The notes beneath the pieces are model-generated. The model made no database searches, had not been told where the DNA came from, and saw nothing but the letters and a program-made list of their open reading frames with translations. DNA of 64,000 nt, from the NCBI GenBank assembly GCA_031553915.1, contig JAVBKT010000009.1, positions 12,520 through 76,519 on the forward strand, read 5' to 3'. Each line of letters begins with the position of its first letter. Within the stretch, counting starts at the first letter, position 1. This stretch comes from Bacillota bacterium (GTDB lineage: Bacteria; Bacillota; Dehalobacteriia; UBA4068). The position numbers were made by a program, and so were the translations under genes. Shown one piece after another: positions 1-33,034 of this stretch.

Positions 1-557
1 GGACAGACAAGCCCCCTGACAAGCTATATATCCTGATCAGCGGCAATATTGCCATGGCAAAAGATACCTTGGGCGGCAAACGCAGCCTGAGCAAGAGCAT
101 CACCCAGCCGGGCGAGATGACCGGCGAGGTGCGGCTTTTTTCACCCAAAAAACTGCTGTGGGAATACGCGGTTGCACTGGAAAACAGCTCTGTTTTAGAA
201 ATCGACAGCAGCATCTTTTTGCAGCCGGGCGCGATTGATGCGGATATTCAGATTGTGCTTTTGCGCAATATAATTAGTAATGTCGTCGAAAAAATCGATT
301 ACCTCGGTCAAAAGGTGAGGATACTCTCGCTCTCCTCGGCAAGAGAGCGCATTGCCTTATACCTGCTCAACATTGAGGACAAAAACCGCCGCATGATTTT
401 CAGCGGCACAAGGGAAGAAATCGCCGACTATTTGGGAATGGCGAGACCGTCCTTATCGCGGGAGCTTGGCCGCATGCAGGACGAGGGGATAATTCGCATT
501 GACGGGCACGAGGTGTATATCACCAATCATGATGTCTTTGACGAACTATTTGAATAA
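1..557 (+). CDS. Crp/Fnr family transcriptional regulator, 5'-partial (cNMP-binding domain runs off the window start; C-terminal HTH present)
   Basis: The reading frame is open from base 3 (…YILISGNIAMAKD…). The C-terminal HTH REEIADYLGMARPSLSRELGRMQDEGII is typical of Crp/Fnr DNA-binding domains. Confidence 0.85.
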   Translation, partial: TDKPPDKLYILISGNIAMAKDTLGGKRSLSKSITQPGEMTGEVRLFSPKKLLWEYAVALENSSVLEIDSSIFLQPGAIDADIQIVLLRNIISNVVEKIDYLGQKVRILSLSSARERIALYLLNIEDKNRRMIFSGTREEIADYLGMARPSLSRELGRMQDEGIIRIDGHEVYITNHDVFDELFE

Positions 558-558
558 A

Positions 559-576
559 GCGTAACCCCGGTTACAT
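559..576. promoter_or_regulatory. Palindromic operator cGTAAC-CCCG-GTTACa (site 1 of 4; consensus TGTAAC-N4-GTTACA)
   Basis: Read directly from the sequence. It is a 14-16 bp inverted repeat lying between the crp-like stop and the SDR start. Confidence 0.5.
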
Positions 577-584
577 ACAAATTA

Positions 585-637
585 ATCCCCTTTCGTTATA
601 CTAATTATAAGAAGTACAAACGAAAGGGGATGCTTTT
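585..637 (+). terminator. Terminator-like hairpin with a 13-bp perfect stem and a 3' T-run. The 3' arm contains the SD (AAAGGGGA) of the downstream SDR gene
   Basis: The stem atcccctttcgtt / aacgaaaggggat pairs perfectly around a loop of about 20 nt, followed by gcttttATG. Confidence 0.45.
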
Positions 638-1420
638 ATGAGACTTCAGAATAAGGCCGCTATTATCACCGGCGCAGGCGGAGGCTTTGGGCGGGCTACC
701 GCAATCAAATTTGCCAAAGAGGGCGCCCGCCTGTCTTTGGTTGATCTGAATGAGACAGCGCTGCGCGAGACTGAGGGAATCGTCAAAAAAGCAATGCCCC
801 AGGCGGAAATCCTCTGCACAAAGGCCGATGTCTCCAGTGAGGGGGACGTTAATGCTTTTATCGACGCCACAGTGCAACGCTTCGGCGCTCTGGATATCCT
901 TTTCAACAATGCGGGGATTGAGGGTATTACCGCTCCCATTGATGAAATGCCCTTTGATCTCTTCCAGCGTGATCTGGCCATAAACCTGCACAGCGTGTTC
1001 CTCGGCATGAAATACGCCATTGCCCATATGAAAAATCATGGCGGCGGGAGCATCATCAGCACTGCTTCAGCAGCGGGCATTATAGCCTTCCCCTTCAGCT
1101 CGGGATATGTGGCATCCAAGCACGGCATTATCGGCCTGACCAAGGCTGCCGCTGTTGAATATGGCGCGGCGAATATCAGGACGAACGCCATCTGCCCCGG
1201 TGCGGCAATGACTGAGCTGCATAAACGCACAGCCCGTCAGTTTGCCAAAACAGAGGAAGAGGCCGAGGCCTTTTACCAGGCCAATGCTGAGAACGTGCCG
1301 ATGAAACGCTACGCTAAAGTAGAAGAAATTGCGGATGCAGCGGTTTATCTGGCCAGCGACGAATCCTCTTATGTCAATGGCATTTCCCTGATGGTGGACG
1401 GCGGATTTACAATCGTCTAA
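638..1420 (+). CDS. SDR family NAD(P)-dependent oxidoreductase
   Basis: The ITGAGGGFG Rossmann motif, NNAG and YVASKHG (YxxxK) catalytic motifs are present. The ORF encodes 260 aa. Confidence 0.9.
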   Translation: MRLQNKAAIITGAGGGFGRATAIKFAKEGARLSLVDLNETALRETEGIVKKAMPQAEILCTKADVSSEGDVNAFIDATVQRFGALDILFNNAGIEGITAPIDEMPFDLFQRDLAINLHSVFLGMKYAIAHMKNHGGGSIISTASAAGIIAFPFSSGYVASKHGIIGLTKAAAVEYGAANIRTNAICPGAAMTELHKRTARQFAKTEEEAEAFYQANAENVPMKRYAKVEEIADAAVYLASDESSYVNGISLMVDGGFTIV

Positions 1421-1434
1421 ACTTTTTGACAAAC

Positions 1435-1450
1435 TGTAACCATAGTTACA
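1435..1450. promoter_or_regulatory. Palindromic operator TGTAAC-CATA-GTTACA (site 2)
   Basis: Perfect 6+6 inverted repeat seen in the SDR-amidohydrolase intergenic region. Confidence 0.5.
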
Positions 1451-1453
1451 TTA

Positions 1454-1509
1454 AACAACATCTCCTTCTGGTAGACTTAAACCAACAAACCAAGAGGAGA
1501 TGTTTTATT
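1454..1509 (+). terminator. Hairpin aacatctcct / aggagatgtt followed by a T-run. Its 3' arm is the SD of the amidohydrolase gene
   Basis: 10-bp perfect inverted repeat with a loop of about 30 nt, then gttttattATG. Confidence 0.4.
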
Positions 1510-2508
1510 ATGAAACTTATTGCTATAGAAGAGCACTATATGTCCCAGGCAGTCAACGAGCAGTATATGCAGGTCATGACCAAAATCGTCAGCCCGGCGG
1601 AACGCGCCCGGCTGGAGGGTTTGCAGACATTTCTGGCAAACAGCAGCATCAGCGATTTGGCTGAAATACGCATCGCCACCATGGATAAGCAAGGCGTTGA
1701 TCTACAGGTGATCTCCTACGGCAATAACAGCCCGCAGGATTTGCCCTCTGATGCCGCTGTTCCGCTGTGCAGACAGGCCAATGACGAGCTGGCAACAGCT
1801 ATTCGCCAGCACCCTACCCGCTTCGCCGGCTATGCCGCGCTGCCAATGGGCAATCCCCAGGCAGCCGCGGATGAGCTGAGCCGCGCAGCAAATGAGCTTG
1901 GATTCAAGGGCGCCTCTTTGAACGGCAACTACAACGGCAGGTTCTTTGACGAACCGGAGTTTTTCCCCATCTTCCAAAGAGCGGCGGATCTGGACGTCCC
2001 CATCTATTTCCACCCCGGCTTCCCCAATGAAAAGGTGGCGGACTATTATTATCAGGGTGAAAATATTCCCGCTGCCGTGTCTGCTGTGTTTGGCTCTTAT
2101 GGTTACGGCTGGCATGTGGATGTGGGTATTCATATGATGCGGATGATTCTATCGGGCATCTTTGACAAGCTCCCGAGCCTGAAGCTGATAACCGGCCACT
2201 GGGGTGAGCTTGTCCCCTACTATTTCGACCGTATCGATGAGATGATTCCGGAAAGCATCACCGGCCTCGGACGTCCGTTCTCGCAGATTTACAAGGAGCA
2301 TGTCTATATTACTCCCAGTGGCATTGCCAGCCGCGGACCGGCTATGCTGACCATCAATGAGATGGGCGCGGAACATGTGTTGTGGTCGCACGACTTCCCC
2401 TATGTGAAGCGGAATAATGTCCACGATTTCCTCATGGATCTGCCCATCAGTCAGGCAGACAAAGAAAAAATCGCACACCAGAACGCGGAAGCGCTACTGA
2501 AATTATAA
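1510..2508 (+). CDS. Amidohydrolase family 2 protein (ACMSD/2-pyrone-dicarboxylate hydrolase-like metal-dependent hydrolase)
   Basis: The N-terminus MKLIAIEEHY is typical of PF04909-type amidohydrolases. The start was chosen at the internal ATG with the AAGAGGAG SD, because the longer ORF would overlap the operator. Confidence 0.75.
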   Translation: MKLIAIEEHYMSQAVNEQYMQVMTKIVSPAERARLEGLQTFLANSSISDLAEIRIATMDKQGVDLQVISYGNNSPQDLPSDAAVPLCRQANDELATAIRQHPTRFAGYAALPMGNPQAAADELSRAANELGFKGASLNGNYNGRFFDEPEFFPIFQRAADLDVPIYFHPGFPNEKVADYYYQGENIPAAVSAVFGSYGYGWHVDVGIHMMRMILSGIFDKLPSLKLITGHWGELVPYYFDRIDEMIPESITGLGRPFSQIYKEHVYITPSGIASRGPAMLTINEMGAEHVLWSHDFPYVKRNNVHDFLMDLPISQADKEKIAHQNAEALLKL

Positions 2509-2523
2509 ACAGGAGAATTCATC

Positions 2524-2784
2524 ATGTTAAACGCCGAGCAATTAATACAAACCAGTATAGAAATGAAAGAAAACCTGAGGATTTCCGCATTAACGCCGGA
2601 GATAGTCTGCGCTGATCTTGATATCAGCAGCAGCGCGCTGGCTGCGGTGCTTGATATGTCAGGCGCGGACCCAACCACTGTTTGGCGGGTGCGGGATTAT
2701 CTGCTGCGGAAAATTGAAGAACAGGGTAAAAGTCCCTTGCCCTTTTCCGCCCTGAAGACGAACATCTGGTATCGCTACGATTAA
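2524..2784 (+). CDS. Small conserved protein (DUF2316-like), paralog of 4313..4582
   Basis: 86 aa. Shares (D/N)PTxVWxxRDYxxxKxxEQGKxPxPxS with the second copy. Confidence 0.6.
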   Translation: MLNAEQLIQTSIEMKENLRISALTPEIVCADLDISSSALAAVLDMSGADPTTVWRVRDYLLRKIEEQGKSPLPFSALKTNIWYRYD

Positions 2785-2798
2785 TGGGAGAGGGAACC

Positions 2799-4247
2799 AT
2801 GACGCAGGATAATAATCTATCAACACAAACTATGGAGAGCGCCCAGCAAAGTAATCCCTTGGGCTCCGCTCCTGTCTGGCCCCAGCTATTCCGCTTTGGC
2901 ATACCGGCTATGATCAGCCTGCTGGTGGGCGCGATTTACAATATCACCGACCAAATATTTATCGGCAATGTAGTGGGCATGTACGGCAACGCCGCTACCA
3001 ATGTGGCTTTGCCGCTGGTAACGCTGGTGCAGGCTATCGCCACCTTAATCGCCTTTGGCTCCTCCGCAAACTTTACGATCAGCATCGGCGCGGAAAACAA
3101 AAAAGACGGCGCGCGTTTCACCGGCAATGCCATTAGCCTGTCCATCATTAGCGGTGTTGCTGTTATGGCAATCACTCTCGTTTTTCTCGACCCGCTTATC
3201 AATCTTTTCGGGGCCAGCGTAAACTCTGCGCCGCTCGCAGCAACCTATATTCAAATCACTGCACTCGGCTTCCCCTTTTTGCTCTTTTCGGTTGCCTGTA
3301 CGGATTTGATCCGCTCGGACGGCAGCCCTACCTTTGCCATGATCGCCTCCATTACCGGCGCTGTGATCAATGTCGGGCTGGACGCGCTCTTTATGTTCGT
3401 TTTTGAATGGGGCATTGCCGGCGCAGCTTGGGCAACGGTCATCGGGCAAATTATCTCCGCCGGATTGATAGCCGCCTACTTTACCCGGTTTAAGAGCCTT
3501 AAACTGACAAGAGACGATTTGAAACCACGGAAGGCTATTGTTGGCCCCATCATCAGGCTGGGTATTCCCGGGTTTTTCGGCAGCTTCACTTCCATGGCAG
3601 TGCAAATTACCATGAACAGAACCATGAGCTATTATGGCGGGCTTTCAATATACGGCAGTGATATCCCCTTTGCCGTGATGGCGGTTGTTTCCAGAATCAA
3701 TATTATCGTATACGCCATCAATGCCGGATTTTCGATGGGCGCCAACCCGATGATCGGCTATAACCTGGGGGCAAAAAATTACAAAAGAGTGCGTGAGGTT
3801 TTCCTCAAATGCGCGCTGGCGATTACGATTTCATCGGCCATTTTTACCGCTATTTTCCAAATCTTCCCCGAGCAGGTGGTCAGCATCTTTGGCGGCGGCA
3901 CTGCGGAATATTTCGAATTTGCCGTGAAATATATGCGCATCTTTATCATGCTGATGCCTATCAGCGGGCTGGTGTCTCTGTGTTCCTTCTTTATCACAAC
4001 TACCGGCAAATCATTGCAGGGGCTGATACTGTCCGTTTCCCGGCAAGGCATCCCGCTGATTATCCTGGCTATAATTTTGCCCCGCTTTTTCGGCATTGAC
4101 GGCATTTTGTGGGCCGGGCTGATCGGGGACGCGATTGCCATGATACTCGCGACGATCTTTATCATACCGGTGCTGCGGGATTTAGGCAAAGACACTACAG
4201 AAAAAAATACCCTAGAGGTATCAGGGGAAAAAGCCTTGGAGATGTAA
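2799..4247 (+). CDS. MATE family efflux transporter
   Basis: About 480 aa polytopic membrane protein with MATE-like architecture of 12 TM helices. The SD is GGGAGAGGG. Confidence 0.85.
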   Translation: MTQDNNLSTQTMESAQQSNPLGSAPVWPQLFRFGIPAMISLLVGAIYNITDQIFIGNVVGMYGNAATNVALPLVTLVQAIATLIAFGSSANFTISIGAENKKDGARFTGNAISLSIISGVAVMAITLVFLDPLINLFGASVNSAPLAATYIQITALGFPFLLFSVACTDLIRSDGSPTFAMIASITGAVINVGLDALFMFVFEWGIAGAAWATVIGQIISAGLIAAYFTRFKSLKLTRDDLKPRKAIVGPIIRLGIPGFFGSFTSMAVQITMNRTMSYYGGLSIYGSDIPFAVMAVVSRINIIVYAINAGFSMGANPMIGYNLGAKNYKRVREVFLKCALAITISSAIFTAIFQIFPEQVVSIFGGGTAEYFEFAVKYMRIFIMLMPISGLVSLCSFFITTTGKSLQGLILSVSRQGIPLIILAIILPRFFGIDGILWAGLIGDAIAMILATIFIIPVLRDLGKDTTEKNTLEVSGEKALEM

Positions 4248-4312
4248 ACCAAAAATCAGACAAACTGTTTCCACAACAAATAAATATTTCAATTATGAAA
4301 GAAGGTCTTAAT

Positions 4313-4582
4313 ATGTTAACAGCACAAGAAAAAAGACAACAGGCTATTGAGTTAAATGAAAATTATCGCGCTTTGGGCTATCCATGCGAACGCATCTTGG
4401 CGGATATAAAAATCAGCGGAGCCGAGCTTGATGCGGTGCTGGCCATGGAAAATGAAAACCCGACAGCTGTGTGGATGCTGCGGGATTATATGGACGAAAA
4501 GCTGCGCGAGCAGGGCAAAATTCCCCGTCCCTATTCAAAGGGTTCAGTCAATATCTATTTCCCTTATAGAAAAACCTGGTGA
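4313..4582 (+). CDS. Small conserved protein (DUF2316-like), paralog of 2524..2784
   Basis: 89 aa from the internal ATG with the GAAAGAAGG SD. It aligns with the first copy over its whole length. Confidence 0.6.
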   Translation: MLTAQEKRQQAIELNENYRALGYPCERILADIKISGAELDAVLAMENENPTAVWMLRDYMDEKLREQGKIPRPYSKGSVNIYFPYRKTW

Positions 4583-4614
4583 GCATTGCTCACTTTATGA
4601 AAGAAGGTGCAAAA

Positions 4615-5127
4615 ATGAAAAAACAAATTATTATTTTGACTGCGGTGTTGTCAATAGCTATACTCTTTTCTGCTTGCAGCACTGTCAATAATGAACCCTC
4701 TGACAGCACACCATCAGCAACCCTGCCAGCCTCTGATCCGGTGGAGCAACCAGCCGACACACCGGCGACAGAGCCGGAGTCTTCTCCTGATACAGAAGGT
4801 ACCGGATCAAACGCCATCAATGTTGTGGAGCTGTACAATGAGTTCATCGCCGACCTCTCGGCTGCGACAGATAAATATAGCGGCGAAAGCATTACCGCCA
4901 CCGGCGTTGTTATCCGCACCGGAGCGGATATTCACGGCACGCCATCCATTGAATTATCTGATAGCGAAGACGGACAAATCTACGTTCTATATGTTGTCAA
5001 TTCCTTCGACCAGCTCGATGAGGTGTCTGTCGGCGAAACAGTAACGATGAAAGGTAATTTTCACGTTTTTAGTTCCGCTGAGTGGGGCGTCGTCATCAAG
5101 CAGGGTGAAGTTATAGAAAAGGAGTGA
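4615..5127 (+). CDS. Lipoprotein with a C-terminal OB-fold (tRNA_anti-like) domain
   Basis: Signal peptide plus lipobox LFSAC, a Pro/Ser/Thr linker, then a domain sharing GxPSIELSDS… with the 9311..9640 protein. Confidence 0.7.
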   Translation: MKKQIIILTAVLSIAILFSACSTVNNEPSDSTPSATLPASDPVEQPADTPATEPESSPDTEGTGSNAINVVELYNEFIADLSAATDKYSGESITATGVVIRTGADIHGTPSIELSDSEDGQIYVLYVVNSFDQLDEVSVGETVTMKGNFHVFSSAEWGVVIKQGEVIEKE

Positions 5128-5131
5128 TCTC

Positions 5132-6406
5132 ATGAAAAAAATAACTGCTCTAGGGCTTAGTATATTGCTGTTTGCCGGTATACTGGCAGGGTGTGCCAGC
5201 ACACCGACAGACGACCCTGCACCGCCTGTAACCCCTCCGGCTGATAATCAGCCGGCAGACATTGATTCCCGGGTGCTGATTGTTTATTATTCGCTTTCGG
5301 GTAATACTGAAAACGTCGCCAAGATGATAGAGACAAAAACCGGCGCTGACCTTTATCTGCTGGAACCGGAAACCCCCTACCCCAGCTCTACCGAGGCTAC
5401 TGGCACAGAAATGCAAGCGGAGCGGGATAATAACTCCATCCGTGAACTAACGGGCACTTTACCGGATCTGTCTGATTATGATTATATTCTCATTGGCGGG
5501 CCGGTATGGTCCGGGCTGCCGTCTAATCCCGTACAGAAATATTTAAGCCTTAATGATTTTACCGGCAAGCAGGTATCCGGGTTCTGGACAGCATACGGCG
5601 ACCCTGCCAATTATGCGGATGAATTCGCGGCGCTGGTTACTAACGGCTCTGTTCTGGAAGGACTCAGCTTAGTCAGTGCCGATGTTTCGGACAGCGCCGT
5701 GCTTAATGCCAAAATAGATGCCTGGCTGGAATCATTAGGTCTTCCTCAAGCATCCGGCTCTGCCGCAGCCGCTGATATTACTGTCCGCAAGTTTGACAGC
5801 ACCGGCCCGCGGGCCTGGACCGCTTCCTTCCATGTCATCAGCTCCGAAAAAGGGAATATCCTCATCGATCCCGGCAAGTATGACGATGAGCTTGCCGAGT
5901 ATATCGAATCAATCGGCGGCGTGGAGGCGATTCTCATCACACACGGGCATTGGGATAAGCTGAGAGGTCTTGACGAGGCAGTTGCGGCCAATCCCGACGC
6001 CACCGTCTATGTTCATGAGCTGGATTATCCCTATTTCAGCGATCCCGTACGCAACTGCTCAATCGAGCAGGGCTTTGAAGGCATAACAGAAACCCCAGCC
6101 GAGACGCTGGTTGAGGGCACTTATCAAATCGCCGGGTACACAGTTGAGGTGATTCACACGCCCGGGCATACCGAGGGCTCCAGCCTCTTTTACTTCCCGG
6201 ATGAAAATATGCTGATCGGCGGTGACACCATCATGGCTGATCTGGTAGCCGGATCTGAGCATCCGGGCGGAAATGAAGCTGACCGGCAGGCATCTATTCA
6301 AAAATTTAAAGAGCTGGTGTTTCCTGACGACATGAAGATTTATAGCGGCCACGGCGCAGACACCACTTATGCCGAGTTGATGCAAACAAACAGGGATTTG
6401 CAGTAA
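5132..6406 (+). CDS. Lipoprotein: N-terminal flavodoxin-like (flavodoxin_4) domain fused to a C-terminal MBL-fold metallo-hydrolase domain
   Basis: Lipobox LAGCAS. The flavodoxin-like segment is LIVYYSLSGNTENVAKMIE. The MBL segment has HGHWDK and HTPGHTEGS motifs. Confidence 0.8.
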   Translation: MKKITALGLSILLFAGILAGCASTPTDDPAPPVTPPADNQPADIDSRVLIVYYSLSGNTENVAKMIETKTGADLYLLEPETPYPSSTEATGTEMQAERDNNSIRELTGTLPDLSDYDYILIGGPVWSGLPSNPVQKYLSLNDFTGKQVSGFWTAYGDPANYADEFAALVTNGSVLEGLSLVSADVSDSAVLNAKIDAWLESLGLPQASGSAAAADITVRKFDSTGPRAWTASFHVISSEKGNILIDPGKYDDELAEYIESIGGVEAILITHGHWDKLRGLDEAVAANPDATVYVHELDYPYFSDPVRNCSIEQGFEGITETPAETLVEGTYQIAGYTVEVIHTPGHTEGSSLFYFPDENMLIGGDTIMADLVAGSEHPGGNEADRQASIQKFKELVFPDDMKIYSGHGADTTYAELMQTNRDLQ

Positions 6407-6454
6407 AAAGGCAAGTCTCACCAAAATATTAGCTCTGCTGACAAAAATCACAAA

Positions 6455-6472
6455 ATGTAACTACGGTTACAT
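6455..6472. promoter_or_regulatory. Perfect 18-bp palindromic operator ATGTAAC-TACG-GTTACAT (site 3)
   Basis: Seen upstream of the P-type ATPase gene. Confidence 0.5.
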
Positions 6473-6480
6473 AAAATTTT

Positions 6481-6530
6481 ATCTCCTTTTGATAAACTGT
6501 AAATAACAGATCAAAAGGAGATTTTTATTC
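6481..6530 (+). terminator. Hairpin atctccttttgat / atcaaaaggagat followed by TTTTTATT
   Basis: 13-bp perfect stem with a 16-nt loop and T-run. It sits downstream of the MBL lipoprotein gene and upstream of the ATPase. Confidence 0.5.
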
Positions 6531-6576
6531 GCGCGGGACATAAACCCCGTACTATTATCAGGAAAGGAGAGAGGCT

Positions 6577-9270
6577 ATGACAAATTGGTATGAACCCGAA
6601 CTCTCATCCGTGCTAACGGAACTGAACACTGACGCTAAAGAGGGGCTTTCTGAAAAAAGTATCCCTGCCCGGCAGGCTGAGAGCGGAAAAAATGAATTCA
6701 TTTCCGTCAAAAAAACCAGTCTGCCTAAACGAATACTCTATCAGCTGCAGGATGTCTCTATTATTGTCCTGCTGATTGCAGCCGCCTTGTCCTTTGCCCT
6801 GGCTCTGTACCAGAACAGCGGACTGATCGAGCCAATTGTCATTTTGGCCATCGTCATTCTCAATGTAGTTTTGGCCATCACGCAGGAGGGGCGGGCGGAA
6901 AAGGCTTTGGAAGCCTTGGCCGATCTCAATGCGCCCACCTGCACTGTTATCCGGGACGGCGTACACGCAACCATTGATACCGCAGAACTCGTGCCGGGAG
7001 ATATTATTGTGCTGGAAACCGGCTCTATTGTCCCGGCTGATGCCAGAATCCTCGAAGCCACCGGGCTCTTTTCCGATGAATCCTCTTTAACCGGGGAAAG
7101 CGAGCCGGCAGAAAAGGATGTGTCCGCCCTTTTATCCGGCCAAATCAGCTTAGGCGATCAAGATAATATGGTGTTTTCCGGCTGCGCTATTACGGCCGGT
7201 CATGGCTTGGCAGTAGTCACCGCTATTGGCATGAATACGCAAATGGGGCAAATTGCCAGCCATCTGCATACAGAGACGCGGGTGAAAACCCCGCTGCAAA
7301 TGCGCCTGGACCGCCTGGGCCGGATGATAAGCTGGATCGCAATTGCTGCTGCTTTTGTACTGCTGGCAGTGGGCCTGCGCGGCGGTACTGATTTCCCCAC
7401 CATGATTATGATTGCTATCTCCATGGCAGTGGCGGCTGTGCCGGAAACGCTATCCCTCATTGTAACCCTGTCCTTGACCAATGGCGTACAGAAAATGGTC
7501 GGCAAAAACGCTTTAATCCGCAAGCTGCCGGCAGTTGAAACCTTGGGCAGCATCTCTGTTATTTGCTCGGATAAGACCGGAACCCTGACCCAAAACCGTA
7601 TGACTATCCAACAGCTGTGGCTAACCGGCGAGGCGCTTTTTTCCAGCAACTGCGATTTCACTAGGCCGCAAATACGCTTCCTGATGATGCTGGCAATGGC
7701 CAGCAATGCCACTGCCGAGCCTGATGCGCAGGGTGTTACGCAATTTCGCGGCGACGCTACAGAGGTGGCCATCATGCGGCTGCTTGATGAAAAAGGCTAT
7801 AACAAATCTACCGCTGAGCAACAGTTCCCCAAGATAGGGGAAGTCCCCTTCTCTTCGGAACGGAAGCTTATGACGGTGGCACTTAAATCCAAGGACGGCG
7901 GATATACTATCCTTACTAAAGGCGCGCTGGACCGGATGCCCCTGCGGCAGATGACCGCAGAAGAAGAGGCTGAATTCCAAAGCGCGCATGATTCCTTTGC
8001 TGAAGGAGCCCTGAGAGTCATTGCCTTGGGCTATAAACATCTCGACGAGCTGCCGGATCTCGCCCACTTGGAAGAAGAGGAAAAAGATTTGACCTTGATG
8101 GGGCTGATTGGCCTGATTGACCCGCCGCGGCCGGAAGCGAAAGAGGCCATTCAAAAGGCTAAGATGGCAGGTGTCCGCACCGTAATGATTACCGGAGACC
8201 ATGCTGTAACCGCGGAGGCCATTGCCAAAGAGCTAGGGATTCTGACCGAGGGGCAGCGGGTGCTAACTGGCGCGCAGCTGGCGGAAATGCATGAGCAAGA
8301 GCTATACGACACTATCCAAAACTACTCGGTATATGCCCGTGTTTCTCCGGAGGATAAGATCCGCATTGTCAAGGCCTGGCAGGCCAATGGCGACGTGGTA
8401 GCCATGACCGGCGACGGCGTCAATGACGCGCCAGCATTGAGAGCGGCGGATGTCGGCATTGCCATGGGTAAGGCCGGAACAGAGGTCGCCAAAAACGCCT
8501 CTGACATGATACTGACAGACGACAACTTTGCCACCATCGTAGAGGCAGTCAGCGAGGGCCGCAATGTCTATGAAAACATCAAGAAAACTATTTACTTTTT
8601 GCTGGTGTGCAATCTCAGTGAAATTGTCATTATGCTCTTTTCTCAGATTGCCGGTTGGGGCATCTTTTTAACACCCATTATGCTGCTGCTGATTAACCTG
8701 CTGGGCGACGGTATTCCCGGCTTCCAGCTATCGCGGGGGGTTTCTGATGAGAATATTATGGATCGCAAACCCATCCAGCGCGATCAAAGCTTTTTCAGCG
8801 AAGACCTGTTGATTCCGATCATCAGACAGACTATAGCCTGCTCAGCGGTATCTCTGGCTGCTTTCTTCTTTGGCGCTTTCATTGCGGTATCAGCCGCTGT
8901 TGCGCCCAATGTGGCCATTGGTCAAACCATGGCCTTCCTCACTGTCGGCTTTACTTCTATTCTGCATATTTTCAATGTACGCAGCCGCAAGTCAATATTC
9001 AAGGTCTCTCTTAGCAGCAATAAGCCCCTAGTGGTCAGCGCTGTGCTTATGCTCGGCGTATTCATTGTCATGGCACTCACACCGCCGCTCCAAAGCCTCT
9101 TCGGTTTGACCGCGCTCAGCGGTATACATTGGCTGATTGTCATCGGCTTTTCTATCATCCCCACCCTCGTCCGCGAAATGGGTGTGCGGATTGACAATAA
9201 TCCCTATGTGCTGGCAAAACGGCGCCGGAAACACGAACTGTTGCACCGCACAGCAGCTGAGGAGCAGTAA
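6577..9270 (+). CDS. Cation-translocating P-type ATPase (Ca2+-type, P2 family)
   Basis: ICSDKTGTLTQN phosphorylation motif, MITGDH, TGDGVNDAPAL, and 10 TM segments across 897 aa. Confidence 0.9.
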   Translation: MTNWYEPELSSVLTELNTDAKEGLSEKSIPARQAESGKNEFISVKKTSLPKRILYQLQDVSIIVLLIAAALSFALALYQNSGLIEPIVILAIVILNVVLAITQEGRAEKALEALADLNAPTCTVIRDGVHATIDTAELVPGDIIVLETGSIVPADARILEATGLFSDESSLTGESEPAEKDVSALLSGQISLGDQDNMVFSGCAITAGHGLAVVTAIGMNTQMGQIASHLHTETRVKTPLQMRLDRLGRMISWIAIAAAFVLLAVGLRGGTDFPTMIMIAISMAVAAVPETLSLIVTLSLTNGVQKMVGKNALIRKLPAVETLGSISVICSDKTGTLTQNRMTIQQLWLTGEALFSSNCDFTRPQIRFLMMLAMASNATAEPDAQGVTQFRGDATEVAIMRLLDEKGYNKSTAEQQFPKIGEVPFSSERKLMTVALKSKDGGYTILTKGALDRMPLRQMTAEEEAEFQSAHDSFAEGALRVIALGYKHLDELPDLAHLEEEEKDLTLMGLIGLIDPPRPEAKEAIQKAKMAGVRTVMITGDHAVTAEAIAKELGILTEGQRVLTGAQLAEMHEQELYDTIQNYSVYARVSPEDKIRIVKAWQANGDVVAMTGDGVNDAPALRAADVGIAMGKAGTEVAKNASDMILTDDNFATIVEAVSEGRNVYENIKKTIYFLLVCNLSEIVIMLFSQIAGWGIFLTPIMLLLINLLGDGIPGFQLSRGVSDENIMDRKPIQRDQSFFSEDLLIPIIRQTIACSAVSLAAFFFGAFIAVSAAVAPNVAIGQTMAFLTVGFTSILHIFNVRSRKSIFKVSLSSNKPLVVSAVLMLGVFIVMALTPPLQSLFGLTALSGIHWLIVIGFSIIPTLVREMGVRIDNNPYVLAKRRRKHELLHRTAAEEQ

Positions 9271-9310
9271 TGTGCCACGTTTTTATCTGGATCAGAATTG
9301 GAGAATTGAT

Positions 9311-9640
9311 ATGAACCAACAAATACCACCAGCTATCAGCGCCGCGGATTTATATGGCGTTTTTCAAACAAATATAGCAGAAGCAAAACAACTATATATC
9401 GGACAAAATCTTGTGGTCAGCGGTATTATTGCCTACATCGGGCCGGATATGTACGGTCTTCCCTCGATTGAGCTATCTGATAGCTCAACAAAACGTTCCC
9501 AGACCCTATTTGTGTTTCGTTCCGGCTTTCCCAAAGATATAGTGCTGGAACGGGGAATGCTAATCACCATATCCGGAGAATGTATAGATGTAATGCCTGA
9601 CGGCATGGTTGTGATCAAAAAGTGTGAAATTGAAAAATAA
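9311..9640 (+). CDS. OB-fold (tRNA_anti-like) protein, paralog of the domain in 4615..5127
   Basis: Shares LY..F……GxPSIELSDS…. There is no signal peptide. The start was chosen at the ATG after the GGAGAAT SD. Confidence 0.6.
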   Translation: MNQQIPPAISAADLYGVFQTNIAEAKQLYIGQNLVVSGIIAYIGPDMYGLPSIELSDSSTKRSQTLFVFRSGFPKDIVLERGMLITISGECIDVMPDGMVVIKKCEIEK

Positions 9641-9656
9641 AAGGAGCTGACAATAA

Positions 9657-10616
9657 ATGAAATACACGGGATTTGGGCTGGGCTGCATGCAAATGCGCAA
9701 GGCGTACCTTGATGAAAATAAGGCCGTTATTCATGCGGCGATTGATCAAGGCGTTACCTTTTTAGATACCGGCGATTTTTATAGCCGAGGAGAAAGCGAG
9801 ATAGTCCTGGGAGAAGCCCTGCAAGGCGTAGAGCGTGACCAGTTCTACATTTCTGTAAAATTTGGGGTTCTTACCCAACAGGGACAGGGTTCCTCTGGTC
9901 TGGACGTTCGCCTGCACAAAATTAAAGGCTATCTCAGCGAGTCTTTGAAGCGGTTGAGGCTTGACTATATTGATTTATATCAGCCGGCGAGAATGGACAG
10001 AGCGATCCCGGTTGAAGAAATCATTGGTGTGATGGCAGACCTGGTCAAGGAAGGGTATATCCGCCACATCGGCCTTTCGATGGTTGACGCGGCTACGCTG
10101 GAAAGGGCGAATGCCATTCATCCTATTGAAACGGTTGAAATGGAGTATTCGCTCTTTAACCGTACGATTGAAGCAGATGTTCTGCCCATGGCGCGGAAGC
10201 TTGGCATCTCAGTGGCCGCGTTCGGCATACTTGCCCACGGGCTGATGAGCGGGCAATATAACAAAAACAGCCTGCGTCAGGGCAATATTCCTCCTTATCG
10301 GGGCAACTCGCTCTTTGCGGCTGACAACATTGAGCAAAACCTGGAGCTGATAGAAAGGCTGCTGGCAATTGCCGGTGAGATGCAGATCAGCCTGCCGCAG
10401 CTGGCTCTGGCCTGGGCCGCGTCCAAGGGCGATGATATCATTCCCATTATTGGCGCGAGCAAAGTTAAAAATTTTCAAGATTCAGCCAAAGCCATGACAA
10501 TTTCTCTCAGCCCGGAGGAAAGGGAGAGGATAGAGGCAGCTATTTTGCCGGAGGAGATTGCGGGCGAGAGCATGAGCAATTTGCAGTTTGAAAATGGCAG
10601 AGTAGTGCTTTTTTAA
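9657..10616 (+). CDS. Aldo/keto reductase
   Basis: The N-terminal region GLGCMQM…LDTGDFYSRGESE…LGEAL is typical of the AKR family. 319 aa. Confidence 0.85.
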   Translation: MKYTGFGLGCMQMRKAYLDENKAVIHAAIDQGVTFLDTGDFYSRGESEIVLGEALQGVERDQFYISVKFGVLTQQGQGSSGLDVRLHKIKGYLSESLKRLRLDYIDLYQPARMDRAIPVEEIIGVMADLVKEGYIRHIGLSMVDAATLERANAIHPIETVEMEYSLFNRTIEADVLPMARKLGISVAAFGILAHGLMSGQYNKNSLRQGNIPPYRGNSLFAADNIEQNLELIERLLAIAGEMQISLPQLALAWAASKGDDIIPIIGASKVKNFQDSAKAMTISLSPEERERIEAAILPEEIAGESMSNLQFENGRVVLF

Positions 10617-10647
10617 TAAACCAATCTTTGCGAAAGAGCGATATAAG

Positions 10648-11424
10648 ATGAAAAAAATAATTATGACTGTTTTAACGATAGCAGCGCTTTTAAGCTTTTC
10701 CGCTTGCAGTGTTCCCGCAGACACAACCGCTGCGGCAAAACCGCCGGAATCTCCTCAAACAGAGCAGGATGCTACTGCGGATGATGCTGCAATCGAGCCG
10801 TCTGTATGAACCTTTTCCACTACCAAGGGCTTTTCCAGCGAGGTTCATGTGCTCAGCTCGGATAAGGGAAACATCCTCATTGACCCCGGCTTTTACAGCG
10901 ATGATCTTGCCGCATATGTAGAGGAGATCGGCGGGCTTGATGCTATCCTCATCACCCATGGACACTGGGATAATATCCACGCCCTGGATGCGGCAGTAGC
11001 GGCGAACCCGGATGCCGAGGTCTATATTCACAGGCTGGATTATGACTTTCTGCGCGACCCGGTTTTGAATGCTTCTTTGCCCAACGGGTTTTCCCTGGCG
11101 GTTGAAACACAACCGTTAACCTTTGACGAAGAAGGATTTTACGATATCGGCGGCTATCATTTTGAGCTGATACACATGCCCGGGCATACCTGCGGCTGCT
11201 GTTGTTTCTATTTTGAAGAGGAAAACATTCTTTTCCGCGGCGACATGTTTATGATTCCTTTTGTCGGCTCTGCCGACCACCCTACCGGCAGCGAGATTGA
11301 CCGGGCCGCTTCCATCGAGAAATTCAAAAATTTTGGCTTTCCTGACGATTTGAAAATTTATCCCGGGCATCGCGGCAACACCACCTATGGCGAAATGTTG
11401 AAAACAAACGTTGATTTGCAATAA
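10648..11424 (+). pseudogene. Lipoprotein MBL-fold hydrolase interrupted by an in-frame TGA (10807-10809). It is a paralog of the MBL domain of 5132..6406; the downstream segment 10849..11424 is intact
   Basis: A signal peptide plus lipobox (LSFSAC) ORF at 10648..10809 is in the same frame as the MBL ORF. The residues after the TGA (TFSTTKGFSSEVHVLSSDKGN) align with TASFHVISSEKGN of the first copy. Confidence 0.5.
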
Positions 11425-11448
11425 ACTTGCAGCTTGTTAAAAATAGAC

Positions 11449-11464
11449 TGTAACCATGATTACA
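11449..11464. promoter_or_regulatory. Operator-like palindrome TGTAAC-CATG-ATTACA (site 4, one mismatch)
   Basis: Seen upstream of the PNPOx-like/SnoaL-like gene pair. Confidence 0.4.
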
Positions 11465-11522
11465 TAAATGAGTGCTAACCCATGCTAAACTGAAAATAAC
11501 AACAACTAAAGGAGCGATTGAT

Positions 11523-11930
11523 ATGATTGATTATATTGACATTATAAAACAAAACCCCAACGGCGTGCTGGCTACACAAAGCAATAGCAGTCTGGACACC
11601 AGGGTAGTGCACAGCCTCTTTGCTGAGGATAATAAAGTGTATTTCTGCACCAAAGGCGAAAAGTCGATGTACGCGCAGCTTATGGCCAACCCGGATGCGT
11701 CGTTCTGCTGCTACCCGCCCAATTATTCGCCGGTATTGACCTTAAACGGCAAAGTGTCCTTCGTGGACGATATGGCGTTCAAGACCCGTGTGATGGAGGA
11801 GAGCGGAATAGTCAAGGACAACTACCAGACTGCAGATAATCCGGCATTCAAGCTCTTCTATCTGGAAGTGGAGGAAGTCAAGCTTCACACTCCCGGAGTG
11901 AGTACAACCAGGGAGGCGATAATATGTTAG
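11523..11930 (+). CDS. Pyridoxamine 5'-phosphate oxidase (PNPOx)-like FMN-binding protein
   Basis: Small split-barrel protein pattern (NGVLATQS…VYFCT…). The start was chosen after the AAAGGAG SD. Confidence 0.75.
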   Translation: MIDYIDIIKQNPNGVLATQSNSSLDTRVVHSLFAEDNKVYFCTKGEKSMYAQLMANPDASFCCYPPNYSPVLTLNGKVSFVDDMAFKTRVMEESGIVKDNYQTADNPAFKLFYLEVEEVKLHTPGVSTTREAIIC

Positions 11931-12532
11931 ACAGGCCGATGAATAACTCCGCAGAGGATATTGCGGATAAGTTCAGTGTCAAAGAGCTGATCGAATTTGA
12001 GCGGTTTTGCCGCGACAATGCGCTGTGGGATGAGATGAAAAAGTGCTACTCCCCTGATGCCACCGTTAACATCTCCTGGTATCAAGGCAGCGGCTATGGG
12101 TTTGTGGTTGCTTCCAGCCAGATAAATCTCGTTGCCCCGCATAAAATATACAACACTCTGACATGGCTAAATGGCGATAAGGCCTTTGCCCTGACAATGG
12201 CCACTGTGGAAATCCGCCAGACTTTAGACGGCGCAGCTGTCTCGATTTGTACTGACGCCAAGCTGGTTTATCGCTTGGTCAAAAGAGAGGGTGTTTGGCA
12301 TATCATCGCCTTCACCAGCATTTATGAGAAGGATGCCATTGTGCCGGTTTATCCGAATAGGAATATCCATATTGATGCCGGCGAGCTCTCCGCCTACCGG
12401 AGCAGCTATGCCGGTATGTGCTATATGAATCACCTCGCGGGGCGGCCGACTAATGAAAACCTGCCCGGTGTTGATTGGCCGGAGCTGGTGGAGGAGCTTT
12501 ATGAAGAAGCGGGCAAATGGCTGGAAGGGTGA
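11924..12532 (+). CDS. SnoaL-like / NTF2-like domain protein
   Basis: Its start overlaps the previous gene (ATGTTAG), indicating an operon. The alpha+beta barrel pattern fits this family. Confidence 0.55.
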   Translation: MLDRPMNNSAEDIADKFSVKELIEFERFCRDNALWDEMKKCYSPDATVNISWYQGSGYGFVVASSQINLVAPHKIYNTLTWLNGDKAFALTMATVEIRQTLDGAAVSICTDAKLVYRLVKREGVWHIIAFTSIYEKDAIVPVYPNRNIHIDAGELSAYRSSYAGMCYMNHLAGRPTNENLPGVDWPELVEELYEEAGKWLEG

Positions 12533-12607
12533 GCGTGGTGTAAGCAAGCTAAGAGTGACAGCAAAACTTACCACAAATTATAGCCAATAGCCAACAAATC
12601 TATCTGC

Positions 12608-12647
12608 ATACAAAAACCCCTCCCAACGATAAAGATTGAGAGGGGTT
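12608..12647 (-). terminator. Rho-independent terminator for the CHAP endolysin gene (hairpin aacccctc / gaggggtt plus a T-run on the minus strand)
   Basis: Stem-loop flanked by an A-run on the plus strand, which is a T-run on the minus strand. Confidence 0.6.
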
Positions 12648-12687
12648 AAATAGGGCTGCCGTGAGCAAACCCGGGCAATTTTGATAG

Positions 12688-13410
12688 CTATTTTTTCATA
12701 TCAAGAATACCCGCGGCCAGTTTATCATACAAAGCAGCGGCGAATTTGTAGCCGTCCAAGTATTTCATGGTATTATCATCCAGCCCAGGGGCAGCCTGCA
12801 CCATTTCTCTGCTGGTGGTAATAATTAGGGCCTGATATAGCTTGTCATAAAGCGCAGTGGGCCAGAGGTGCTTATCCAGATAGGCCATGGTGTTGTCATC
12901 AAAGCCGGTCGTCTCTTGCACATATTGGCGGTGGTTGTTTTCTTCTTCTTTGTATTCAGGTATGCAGTACCCCTTAATCCAGGAATTGTTCAAGGCTCTG
13001 GTGCGGCGGTAAACGCCGTCGCCATTGGGATTATTGCCGTCCTGGCTGGTATTGCCTTCAATAGCTGTCACTGTTTTGCCGTCGCAGCTCTCCACAATGC
13101 CCACATGAGAATTAGTGCCATAAAGAATAATATCTCCGGGAGCAGGAATATAAGCGCCTTTTGCTTGGTAGCGGCCTTTTGCTTGGTAGTAACTCTGATA
13201 ATCAGGCACCCAGGCGGTGCGGGGAATGATGCCGGAGCAATTATTGCTGCCAAGGATGCCGGCCCCATCCGCGCACCAGGATATGAAATAAGCGCACCAC
13301 GGCTGATAGTTGCCGCCAAAAGCTGCGCCGTATTTATTATTATTGTTTGCTCCTTCTTTGTAGCCAACCTCAGCGGCGGCTAGGCGGAGCATGTTTGTTC
13401 TGTCGGACAT
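12688..13410 (-). CDS. CHAP-domain peptidoglycan hydrolase (endolysin-like) with two C-terminal repeats of about 30 aa; no signal peptide
   Basis: The N-terminal segment QPWCAYFISWCA … HVGIVE matches the Cys/His CHAP pattern. Two C-terminal repeats have the form DDNTM.YLD…ALYDKL. Confidence 0.75.
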   Translation of the reverse strand: MSDRTNMLRLAAAEVGYKEGANNNNKYGAAFGGNYQPWCAYFISWCADGAGILGSNNCSGIIPRTAWVPDYQSYYQAKGRYQAKGAYIPAPGDIILYGTNSHVGIVESCDGKTVTAIEGNTSQDGNNPNGDGVYRRTRALNNSWIKGYCIPEYKEEENNHRQYVQETTGFDDNTMAYLDKHLWPTALYDKLYQALIITTSREMVQAAPGLDDNTMKYLDGYKFAAALYDKLAAGILDMKK

Positions 13411-13528: not shown

Positions 13529-13816
13529 CTAGCCGGCAGTTTCTTCCGGGCTGTTTTCACTGCTTTTCAGCTGTTTATACACCTGATTGACTCCAGTTGC
13601 AGCTAGGCCGGAGACTATACCAATGGCAATAGCGGACATGATATCCGTGGCCGGGAAATCCGGCACAATTTCCATGGCTACCACGCCCAGCGCTGCTCCT
13701 GCTACGCCACAAATAACCGGCAGCCACTTGTTATCAAGCGGGGTGGCCTTGATTGCCTGAGCAATCAAATAACAAATAACGGTAATTGCCGCAAAGCTCG
13801 CAATTCCTAATTCCAT
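13529..13816 (-). CDS. Holin-like small membrane protein
   Basis: 95 aa with three predicted TM helices and a charged C-terminal tail. It sits immediately upstream (same strand) of the signal-less CHAP hydrolase. Confidence 0.55.
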   Translation of the reverse strand: MELGIASFAAITVICYLIAQAIKATPLDNKWLPVICGVAGAALGVVAMEIVPDFPATDIMSAIAIGIVSGLAATGVNQVYKQLKSSENSPEETAG

Positions 13817-29989: not shown

Positions 29990-30635
29990 GTTGTTGCCTC
30001 CTTGGCATATTATTTTGTTTGCTCTTTGGCTTTGGAGCTTTCGGGTAGCCATTAGGGATGCGAATTCATGTGTCTCAGACGGCATCTGATCAAGCCGGAG
30101 CTAGTGCATTGCCCAGCTCAACCATCAATCCACCGGGATGTCGGCAGTTTTGGCTGAAAAACAGTGAGTAGATCTTGATGAAAAAATTGTTTTTCGTAGT
30201 ATATCTACGGGGAATACTTTTTTCATTAAGAGATGCCAGCGTTTTTCAGAACCTACCTGGCCTTTGCTTCACAAAGTCACAGGTAATGCACTAGCTTCGC
30301 GTCGCAAAACCACATGTGGTTCGAATTTCTAATGGCTAAAGCTCTTTTTAATTTTATACATATTTATCTTTTTATTATTTGACAATTAAGTAGTTTTTTG
30401 TAATTTTTTATACTTCTTAAATATTGATCAATATTTTACATAAAAAACATAATAAAATAAAAAAATTTATCTAATATTAATTCTTATATTAAAATATCAG
30501 ATAAACACATTTAATAATTAAATTAATTATAAATAATTACAAAAAATAAATAGCTCACATTTATATAAAAAAATATTTTTGTAATTATTTATAGTTTTAG
30601 AAAAAATTTTTGTACTATTAATTATGGTAAAATTT

Positions 30636-31205: not shown

Positions 31206-31295
31206 CTCTTTTTCCCCACAAACTAAGCCTGCTTTGGCTTATTGTTTGAAGAAAAGCAGCGCGATATGCAGCAAAAATATACTCATTATTGACGG

Positions 31296-31331
31296 CGCCC
31301 ACAAAAAACCAGCAGCAAAATTTTGCTGCTG
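31296..31331 (-). terminator. Hairpin accagcagcaaaa / ttttgctgctggt with T-run
   Basis: 13-bp inverted repeat seen in the sequence. Confidence 0.5.
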
Positions 31332-31393
31332 GTTTTGCATCCTTTGCCTGTTTAAAGATCACGGCAAAGCCAGTTCTCTTTCACATTTGCTTA

Positions 31394-32905: not shown

Positions 32906-32943
32906 CAATATTTGGGCTTGCTTGTCCATTTATCTACATATGC

Positions 32944-32976
32944 AAAAAAGGCCAAGCATGTTTGGCCTTTTTTGCA
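32944..32976. terminator. Bidirectional terminator (aaaaaaggccaa / ttggcctttttt)
   Basis: Perfect palindrome with poly-A and poly-T flanks. Confidence 0.75.
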
Positions 32977-33034
32977 TACGAGGGGAATTTTGAAGCTTTT
33001 TATACCATGAACACATTTAGAAGGAGGTCAATTA

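Follow-up and report, generated by a model that had tools for sequence, protein, structure and literature searches.

We analysed a 64,000-nt stretch of the genome of a Bacillota bacterium (assembly GCA_031553915.1, contig JAVBKT010000009.1, positions 12,520 to 76,519), hereafter the window. Near its start, a partial gene for a Crp/Fnr-family regulator is followed by four gene units, each preceded by a palindromic box with the consensus TGTAAC-N4-GTTACA. An earlier note, made from the sequence alone, had reported four such palindromes and proposed that they form a local regulon of the adjacent regulator. A pattern search of the window recovered all four at the positions that the note had given. 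We consider it likely that they are the operators of this regulator, a relative of Listeria monocytogenes Lmo0753, and that it uses them to activate a conserved set of stress and detoxification genes.

Palindromic boxes and the genes behind them

The regulator gene and the boxes are arranged as follows; matrix scores refer to the weight matrix described below.

Regulator, 3-557, + strand: partial Crp/Fnr regulator open reading frame (ORF)
Box 1, 560-575, CGTAACCCCGGTTACA: 3 nt past the regulator stop codon, before the SDR gene; matrix score 20.6
Box 2, 1435-1450, TGTAACCATAGTTACA: before the amidohydrolase unit; matrix score 29.0
Box 3, 6456-6471, TGTAACTACGGTTACA: before the P-type ATPase unit, within a 7+4+7 palindrome that spans 6455-6472; matrix score 29.3
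Box 4, 11449-11464, TGTAACCATGATTACA: before the PNPOx-SnoaL unit; matrix score 21.1

At no more than one mismatch, the box matches four times in the window; 100 shuffles that preserved the dinucleotides gave 0.05 matches on average, and none of them reached four. Pairs of the half-sites GTAAC and GTTAC occur in the window with a 4-nt spacer only, and nothing was found at the other spacers from 0 to 11 nt. When the window was scanned with a weight matrix trained on 18 sites from other genomes, the window itself being left out, the four boxes ranked first to fourth (20.6-29.3). The next match scored 9.3, below the mean maximum of 9.9 in shuffled windows, which agrees with the note's remark that the other 52 kb hold no further copy. 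All four boxes are intergenic and lie on the same strand as the downstream genes. Their centres are 66-114 nt ahead of the start codon of the first gene of a same-strand unit (70.5, 67.5, 113.5 and 66.5 nt for boxes 1-4), as the note had also described. The boxes are non-random and confined to a 12-kb cluster. A literature search on the box together with Crp returned nothing useful.

The four units behind the boxes contain the following genes.

Unit 1, 638..1420, + strand: SDR (Pfam adh_short_C2, 9e-60); the nearest PDB structure is levodione reductase
Unit 2, 1510..6406, + strand: six genes, assigned with Pfam
1510-2508, + strand: Amidohydro_2 protein (unit 2)
2524-2784, + strand: DUF2316 protein, first copy (unit 2)
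2784-4247, + strand: MATE efflux protein (unit 2)
4313-4582, + strand: DUF2316 protein, second copy (unit 2)
4615-5127, + strand: tRNA_anti-like OB-fold lipoprotein (unit 2)
5132-6406, + strand: flavodoxin_4-MBL lipoprotein (unit 2)
Unit 3, 6577..11424, + strand: assigned with Pfam and NCBIfam
6577-9270, + strand: P-type cation (Ca-type) ATPase (unit 3)
9311-9640, + strand: tRNA_anti-like OB-fold protein (unit 3)
9657-10616, + strand: aldo-keto reductase (unit 3)
10648-11424, + strand: MBL lipoprotein with an in-frame TGA at 10807-10809, traced by tblastn against the 285-aa homologue of locus L002 (unit 3)
Unit 4, 11523..12532, + strand: assigned with Pfam
11523-11930, + strand: PNPOx-like flavoprotein (unit 4)
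11924-12532, + strand: SnoaL_4 protein, homologue of BtlB/Lmo0754 (unit 4)

Pfam supported the gene content that had been listed beforehand, with a correction to the last gene of unit 3, which is an MBL lipoprotein ORF beginning at 10648 and interrupted in frame. It starts with the ATG at 10648, its TGA falls between the signal peptide and linker and the MBL domain, and the tblastn alignment continues past the stop without a break. A pseudogene or a sequencing error is the probable explanation. The MBL homologue in locus L004, one of the close relatives treated below, has likewise decayed, through a deletion inside the gene or a frameshift. No significant solved relative of DUF2316 was found (best E 0.05), and there was no NCBIfam model for the amidohydrolase, DUF2316, PNPOx-like and SnoaL_4 proteins.

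The regulator and its clade

The regulator ORF matches the Pfam models HTH_Crp_2 (2e-14), cNMP_binding (6e-09) and Crp (2e-06). The full-length protein, P0001, is 229 aa long and 100% identical to the partial protein of the window. It combines a cNMP-binding-like barrel with a C-terminal Crp-type helix-turn-helix, the domain pair of the Crp/Fnr superfamily. A PDB search matched it to many Crp/Fnr structures, the best being 7T8O, Lmo0753 of L. monocytogenes (E 2e-57), to which it is ~47% identical over the full-length protein.

The recognition helix, RPSLSRELGR, is invariant in an alignment of 15 clade members, and its RPSLSR aligns to RETVGR of CRP, so that R180/E181/R185 correspond to R/P/R. 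For the HcpR2 branch, the box GTAACnnnnGTTAC has been attributed to a Glu181-to-Pro change in CRP numbering (Rodionov et al. 2005, PLoS Comput Biol, PMC1274295). Arg180, Pro181 and Arg185 are all present in the window regulator, and the operator GTAACnnnnGTTAC stands before its putative target genes. The likeness to a clostridial HcpR-type motif, which the note had pointed out, is thus borne out by the published HcpR2 box and the matching helix.

The regulator is nevertheless not an HcpR orthologue, judging from the absence of hcp and frdX and from its placement in the tree. Searching the 64-kb window by tblastn with Hcp and the ferredoxin-like protein revealed no hcp or ferredoxin-like gene (frdX), and no such gene lies beside the box in the Lmo0753-type loci examined. 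In a neighbour-joining tree, the window regulator grouped with Lmo0753-type proteins, apart from the hcp/frdX-linked branch, with 78/100 bootstrap support; its identity to the HcpR2 branch is 33-42%. We define the Lmo0753-type clade here by at least ~44% full-length identity to Lmo0753 or its relatives together with a sensor domain that bears the signature (F/Y)WTD ... W(E/D)Y, and the window regulator shows both. These sequence comparisons place it in the Lmo0753-type clade, which is sister to the HcpR2 clade of firmicutes.

The sensor domain gives little indication of the signal. P0001 holds a single cysteine (C15), which is variable within the clade, and so lacks the four cysteines that carry the [4Fe-4S] cluster of FNR. 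The positions of CRP Arg82 and Ser83, which contact the phosphate of cyclic AMP, are occupied by L-W in the window regulator and by D-M in HcpR2. The HcpR of Porphyromonas gingivalis is a heme-dependent sensor of nitric oxide (NO) that needs Met68 for heme coordination and activation (PMC12750200). This Met68, within EIRAEMVGPSGK, aligns to the Lys/Arg of AMAKDT in the Lmo0753-type clade, and the alignment contains no invariant Cys, His or Met in the sensor domain of the clade. With the FNR cysteines, CRP Arg82/Ser83 and a Met68 equivalent all absent, no known signal can be transferred to this regulator.

These residues bear on the idea of a nitrosative- or oxidative-stress regulon, in which the regulator would sense NO or a redox signal through a cofactor and the MBL and flavodoxin proteins would act like split flavodiiron-type reductases. 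Its appeal comes from the sister clade HcpR2, which shares the box and the helix and adjoins hcp, from the pairing of MBL with flavodoxin, the well-established domain pair of flavodiiron NO/O2 reductases, and from a weak match of one MBL protein to the ODP di-iron family. However, hcp and frdX are missing from the window, the clade has Lys/Arg where P. gingivalis HcpR has Met68 and no invariant Cys, His or Met in its sensor domain, and the flavodoxin-MBL and OB-fold proteins have lipoprotein signal peptides and would therefore function outside the cytoplasm. The clade-specific box spacer, C-R-Y-G as opposed to A-W-W-T, also suggests a separation from HcpR2. We regard this reading, the main alternative to a response to phenolic acids, as doubtful.

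Promoter geometry and leader hairpins

When the sequences were aligned on the palindrome, a -10 hexamer was found at an offset of exactly 21 nt from the box at all four sites of the window, and a TGn precedes the hexamer at three of them.

-10 of promoter 1, 594..602, + strand: CGT TATACT, hexamer at 597-602, predicted transcription start site ~609
Extended -10 of promoter 2, 1469..1477, + strand: TGG TAGACT, hexamer at 1472-1477, predicted start site ~1484
Extended -10 of promoter 3, 6490..6498, + strand: TGA TAAACT, hexamer at 6493-6498, predicted start site ~6505
Extended -10 of promoter 4, 11483..11491, + strand: TGC TAAACT, hexamer at 11486-11491, predicted start site ~11498; no hairpin

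Across the genomes examined, 30 of 34 boxes have TAnnnT at exactly +21, and in 20 cases a TGn precedes it. No -35 hexamer was found at a suitable distance at the four window promoters. With the hexamer at -12 to -7, the centre of the box falls at about -41.5. Class II promoters that depend on CRP or FNR have their activator site centred at -41.5 and lack a -35 hexamer. Because of the 21-nt offset to the -10 and the missing -35, we read the boxes as activator sites: their geometry relative to the -10, with start sites that are predicted positions, fits at 4/4 boxes in the window and 30/34 overall, and suggests a class II activator layout, with activation rather than repression. A fifth candidate box at 49798, with two mismatches and the extended -10 TGTATAAT, has no -10 at +21 and was rejected.

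It is unlikely that the boxes are instead repressor operators, at which the regulator or another protein would block RNA polymerase until an inducer frees the promoter. Palindromic operators that overlap promoters are common and some Crp/Fnr proteins repress; moreover, a perfect TTGACA (1426-1431) precedes box 2, so that a promoter with the box in its spacer is conceivable. Yet no acceptable -10 lies 16-18 nt past this TTGACA, where CATTAA lacks the final T, and an equivalent -35 is absent at the other boxes and in relatives. The TTGAC at box 1 and in relatives derives from the codons for the C-terminal 'FD' of the regulator. The conserved feature is a -10 that follows the box at a constant 21 nt and is not accompanied by a -35, and HcpR, the closest relative to have been characterised, is an activator (PMC12750200). 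A promoter model with the box inside the spacer behind the TTGACA at 1426 was accordingly rejected, for its poor -10 and for an arrangement that is not conserved.

Three of the four promoters are enclosed in a potential RNA hairpin, in which the 3' arm coincides with or resembles a Shine-Dalgarno (SD) sequence.

Hairpin 1, 585..631, + strand: -21.7 kcal/mol, z = -6.0; the SD of the SDR gene forms the 3' arm, with a U-rich tract and then the start codon behind it
Hairpin 2, 1457..1504, + strand: -19.2 kcal/mol, z = -5.0; the SD of the amidohydrolase gene forms the 3' arm, with UUUUAUU behind it
Hairpin 3, 6481..6522, + strand: -19.2 kcal/mol, z = -5.5; followed by UUUUUAUU

All three straddle the -10, with the 5' (anti-SD) arm between the box and the -10. 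In hairpin 3, the SD-like 3' arm is distinct from the ATPase SD (~6562-6572) and lies 55 nt ahead of this real SD. The region of box 4 folds no better than shuffled sequences and has no hairpin. In a set of 15 promoters, drawn from the window and nine other loci (metagenome-assembled genomes, MAGs, and two Listeria genomes), the pairing of the helix is kept in 89.5% of cells, compared with 41-58% when the partners are slid, and none of 500 shuffles reached the observed value; nine of the 14 base pairs show compensatory double changes. An Rfam search of positions 1-13000 gave no match at E<=1, and the conserved leaders therefore belong to no known riboswitch or leader family.

Since the predicted start site comes after the 5' arm, only RNA that reads in from the preceding gene would be able to form the hairpin. 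Stable stems with covariation are present along with a U-tract, as would be expected of a terminator or fold-back element, while the loops measure 16-26 nt and the placing of the 5' arm depends on the predicted start sites. The hairpins probably insulate the promoters against read-through: at these three promoters, transcripts arriving from the upstream gene would be terminated or have their SD masked, and transcripts begun at the activated promoter, which would lack the 5' arm, would be translated.

The flank upstream of box 2 (ctttttgacaaac, 1421-1434) resembles the 3' end of the regulator gene, and the second box of locus L004 is preceded by cactatttgaataaag (14060-14081), which is what remains of the codons for the regulator's C-terminus (..LFE*). 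These remnants upstream of the copies show that the box-hairpin cassette was copied in front of new genes, evidently together with a piece of the regulator gene. Taken further, the repeats could be nothing other than a duplicated or mobile cassette of ~75 bp, with no regulatory role, of which the palindrome is simply a part. The box, hairpin and U-tract common to boxes 1-3 would fit such an origin, as would the regulator remnants beside box 2 and the second L004 box. However, box 4 and the boxes of HcpR2, Listeria and Enterococcus faecium loci have unrelated flanks and still keep the palindrome and the 21-nt spacing, and every copy stands before genes in productive orientation, with none elsewhere in the 64 kb. 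A role confined to being part of a repeat is thus very improbable.

Two observations concern neighbouring leader structures. Between 6523 and 6579, hairpin 3 is followed by the SD-like AAGGAGAT and then by a 17-codon frame that runs from an ATT to a TGA sharing bases with the start codon of the ATPase gene (ATGA). This frame might encode a leader peptide or might just be left over from the copying of the cassette. In some HcpR2 loci (L029, 10655-10720; L030; L031), the box lies within the loop of the intrinsic terminator of the regulator gene (aagaagatg...box...catcttcttttttt), and the terminator's U-tract runs into the TGnTAAGAT -10 of the target promoter, a different overlap of terminator and activator promoter.

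Conservation, function and relation to known systems

We scanned GTDB representative genomes with an alignment of the regulator's relatives and obtained 75 loci. The regulator gene has a box no more than 250 bp away in 27 of the 75, a density 80-fold above that in 1.17 Mb of flanks, in line with the note's choice of the adjacent Crp/Fnr gene as the candidate binder. The nine closest of these relatives (L002-L010, 59-75% identity) all have a box 5-15 nt past the regulator stop codon, and the same post-stop position, which is also that of box 1, was found in L077-L087 and in the HcpR2 loci. Among relatives at 33-42% identity, the box again lies 3' of the regulator and is followed by hcp (Prismane, E 1e-171) or by a gene for a 245-aa 4Fe-4S ferredoxin-like protein, which identifies them as bona fide HcpR2 loci. 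In more distant relatives, the box is found 40-80 nt upstream of the regulator. A box directly 3' of the regulator gene is thus kept from 100% down to ~33% identity, and the co-localisation amounts to strong phylogenetic-footprint evidence that the regulator family binds this box.

The spacers differ between the two clades: C-(A/G)-(C/T)-G in the Lmo0753 clade and A/T-only (A-W-W-T) in HcpR2. This difference may keep the two paralogous systems apart. The window, with the spacers CCCG, CATA, TACG and CATG, sides with the Lmo0753-type loci on the C-R-Y-G spacer, the post-stop box and the shared target families.

These footprints also bear on whether some other factor, such as an HcpR2 paralogue elsewhere in the genome or the small DUF2316 proteins, might be the main binder of the boxes and the adjacent regulator a bystander. 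Cross-binding is physically plausible, given that the HcpR2 recognition helix is identical, and the DUF2316 genes, whose products are without a solved structure, belong to the conserved core. The box nonetheless accompanies the regulator clade at loci that have no DUF2316 gene (Listeria L077, L081, L083 and L087), a second Crp/Fnr gene was not found in the 64-kb window, and the position directly behind the regulator gene persists down to HcpR2-level identity. We consider a bystander role for the regulator improbable.

The genes behind the box recur as well. Amidohydro_2 proteins of 67-85% identity follow the regulator and box in L002-L010 and in L085, usually with DUF2316 and often also with MATE, MBL, PNPOx, SnoaL or flavodoxin-MBL genes; as a conserved core, the order regulator-box-Amidohydro_2 was recorded for L002-L005, L007-L010, L079 and L085. 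Locus L004 mirrors the window, with three boxes that precede amidohydrolase-MATE-DUF2316, the decayed MBL gene and PNPOx-SnoaL-flavodoxin/MBL; the box ahead of PNPOx-SnoaL, at 14678, is the orthologue of box 4. In E. faecium (L079), the order is regulator-box-Amidohydro_2-DUF2316, adjoining an ISL3 transposase. An accessory Listeria paralogue in L. monocytogenes, L. swaminathanii and a third genome with a matching gene neighbourhood, L087 (the loci being L077, L081 and L087), is followed by box-MBL-MBL-tRNA_anti-like-flavodoxin_4. The Lmo0753 locus itself (L083, L084) has boxes with abhydrolase and SnoaL_4/btlB targets. One of them, CGTAACCACGGTTACA with TATACT at +21, stands ahead of lmo0752 (alpha/beta hydrolase), and the second, AGTAACCAGCGTTACA with TGGTAAGCT, follows the lmo0753 stop directly and precedes lmo0754/btlB. 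The locus of L. ivanovii is built in the same way. The btlB product (Lmo0754) is 45% identical to the SnoaL_4 protein of the window. The recurrence of these enzyme families behind the box in other genomes indicates that the regulon is conserved, and the window unites all the modules found in those loci, with the SDR and the P-type ATPase in addition. The description of the regulon as local holds for the window, where the boxes are confined to the 12-kb cluster; in L086 it does not, as a box that precedes Amidohydro_2-AKR (aldo-keto reductase) on the opposite strand lies, with its target operon, 5 kb away from the regulator.

The close relatives of the regulator and amidohydrolase in L002-L010 (60-85% identity) come from MAGs labelled Treponemataceae, Oscillospiraceae, Eubacteriales, Clostridiaceae and Bacilli, very different taxa within one project (EPI_MAG), and the E. 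faecium and L. monocytogenes copies adjoin transposase or integrase genes. These scattered taxa and neighbouring mobile genes suggest horizontal transfer or binning errors.

Two enzymes in the units resemble decarboxylases. The nearest PDB structure to Amidohydro_2 is Staphylococcus aureus 3NUR, of unknown function, followed by the gamma-resorcylate, 5-carboxyvanillate, 2,3-dihydroxybenzoate and salicylate decarboxylases. The SnoaL_4/BtlB profile matches only the fungal gallate/protocatechuate decarboxylase AGDC1 (PDB 6W54) and its homologue (E 2.7e-16). In AGDC1, an Arg, an Asp and a His serve as carboxylate anchor and catalytic dyad (PMC7862292); these residues (R39/D40/H86), together with W61, are kept in SnoaL_4/BtlB as R30/D31/H73 and W52. 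BtlB may therefore be an aromatic-acid decarboxylase. BtlB/Lmo0754 (L083, 6762-7373) is annotated as weakly similar to bile acid 7-alpha-dehydratase.

The earlier note's wording of a detoxification or stress regulon of unclear substrate stands whether the response is to phenolic acids or to nitrosative or oxidative stress. The units encode decarboxylase-like enzymes, reductases, flavoproteins, MBL hydrolases and exporters, and the detoxification of a small organic stressor is their most likely role. From the two decarboxylase-like enzymes, together with MATE, SDR, aldo-keto reductase and flavoproteins, hydroxybenzoate-type phenolic acids emerge as the leading guess for what the regulon responds to, and we put this forward tentatively. 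A bolder version, which we offer as speculation, is that Lmo0753-type regulators sense plant or gut hydroxybenzoic acids directly and switch on a horizontally mobile detoxification set with two unrelated decarboxylases, Amidohydro_2 and, as an AGDC1-type enzyme, BtlB. If this were true, a phenolic-acid response would account for the Listeria 'bile tolerance locus B' and for the phenotypes of Lmo0753 in soil and on fresh produce, and the promoter-inside-hairpin cassette would be a reusable insulated promoter module copied before new genes.

In the arrangement that we favour, activation by the adjacent Lmo0753-type regulator, a dimer of the protein would bind TGTAAC-N4-GTTACA through the helix RPSLSRE and, as a class II activator, would jointly turn on all 14 genes of the four same-strand units when a single signal arrives. 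The boxes, their constant spacing, the recognition helix, the pairing of box and regulator across genomes, the recurring target families and the hairpin covariation are seen directly in the sequences; DNA binding, activation, the start sites, the insulation and the signal are deduced. Several points weigh against it or against parts of it. The sensor domain has no FNR cysteines, CRP Arg82/Ser83 or equivalent of P. gingivalis HcpR Met68, and the P-type ATPase and the OB-fold lipoproteins do not fit a phenolic-acid response. The -10 hexamers are imperfect (TAnACT), and the perfect TTGACA 3 nt upstream of box 2 (1426-1431) could serve another promoter. An HcpR2 paralogue with an identical helix elsewhere in the genome could bind the boxes. 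Promoter cassettes 1-3 look like duplicates of one another, so that their likeness is not fully independent evidence. The hairpin loops, at 16-26 nt, are larger than those of typical intrinsic terminators, and a terminator scan restricted to loops of 3-8 nt listed none of hairpins 1-3. Finally, the published work on Lmo0753 that we consulted (including PMC3774658) reports only phenotypes and the adjacency to btlB, and gives no operator or effector.

Outside the regulon, the remainder of the window is an ordinary firmicute chromosome. The cluster ends at a phage-type lysis pair on the minus strand (CHAP-domain lysin, 12688-13410; holin, 13529-13816), which is accompanied by a strong terminator hairpin (12615-12647). 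A single ORF at 40765-42909 encodes a PTS EIIC domain with an EAL domain (cyclic di-GMP phosphodiesterase) at its C-terminus, a combination that struck us as unusual, and a GAF-PAS-GGDEF protein is encoded nearby (34089-35921). The G+C content is 37% at 30000-34000, compared with 45-51% elsewhere in the window, and this segment may be a foreign insert.

Among known systems, HcpR2 shares with the window the predicted box GTAACnnnnGTTAC, the helix RPSLSRE, the position of the box 3' of the regulator gene and the 21 nt to an extended -10. It differs in its hcp or ferredoxin-like targets and its A/T spacer, where the window has the C-R-Y-G spacer and amidohydrolase, MBL, SnoaL and exporter targets. 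The DNA-binding specificity known from the NO-responsive HcpR2 would thus have been retained while the sensor and the regulon changed. Lmo0753 is a member of the window regulator's clade, and the two recognition helices are identical; boxes at equal -10 spacing stand before lmo0752 and btlB. The Lmo0753 locus has two boxes, two target genes and no amidohydrolase, whereas the window has four boxes and 14 genes. Lmo0753 has been linked to soil survival, biofilm formation, attachment to produce and rhamnose use, and adjoins btlB (Salazar et al. 2013, PMC3774658, and other Lmo0753 literature). For this clade, which lacks a described site or signal and includes in Lmo0753 a member with a solved structure and reported environmental-survival phenotypes, our analysis proposes a concrete operator, TGTAACC-N2-GGTTACA (centre at about -41.5), and a list of targets, with lmo0752 and btlB as predicted direct targets.

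P. gingivalis HcpR (PDB 9DAY), a Crp/Fnr-family activator of a stress gene, is the second-best structural relative by profile (E 5e-22), and its activating role has been shown experimentally (PMC12750200). Its helix is RQSLAR, compared with RPSLSR here, its motif is different (PMC1274295), and it needs Met68, where the clade has Lys/Arg. Class II promoters of CRP and FNR have the same box-to-(-10) geometry and no -35, the start sites in the window being predicted.

Davis, Simons and Kleckner reportedly described in 1985 a fold-back inhibition of the IS10 and IS50 transposase mRNAs, which is said to protect these elements from outside read-through. There, it is only in transcripts from outside that the ribosome-binding site becomes paired with sequence from upstream of the element's own start, and hairpins 1-3 share this logic. 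They differ in having a U-tract, an enclosed activator-dependent -10 and a location between ordinary cellular genes, and their function is deduced from this layout. The resulting design would be compact, as the hairpin should silence read-through and leave activated transcription unaffected.

CprK of Desulfitobacterium is a Crp/Fnr activator that binds a chlorinated phenolic ligand and recognises the dehalobox TTAAT-N4-ATTAA. It resembles the window regulator in being a Crp/Fnr activator from a firmicute whose palindrome has an N4 spacer, and it provides a precedent for direct phenolic sensing; it differs in its box and is absent from the PDB sequence matches of the window regulator. Set beside these systems, what is new here is the activator geometry, the Lmo0753-type assignment, the cross-Firmicutes regulon, the clade spacer and the covarying hairpin, which together are an incremental extension of a known family.

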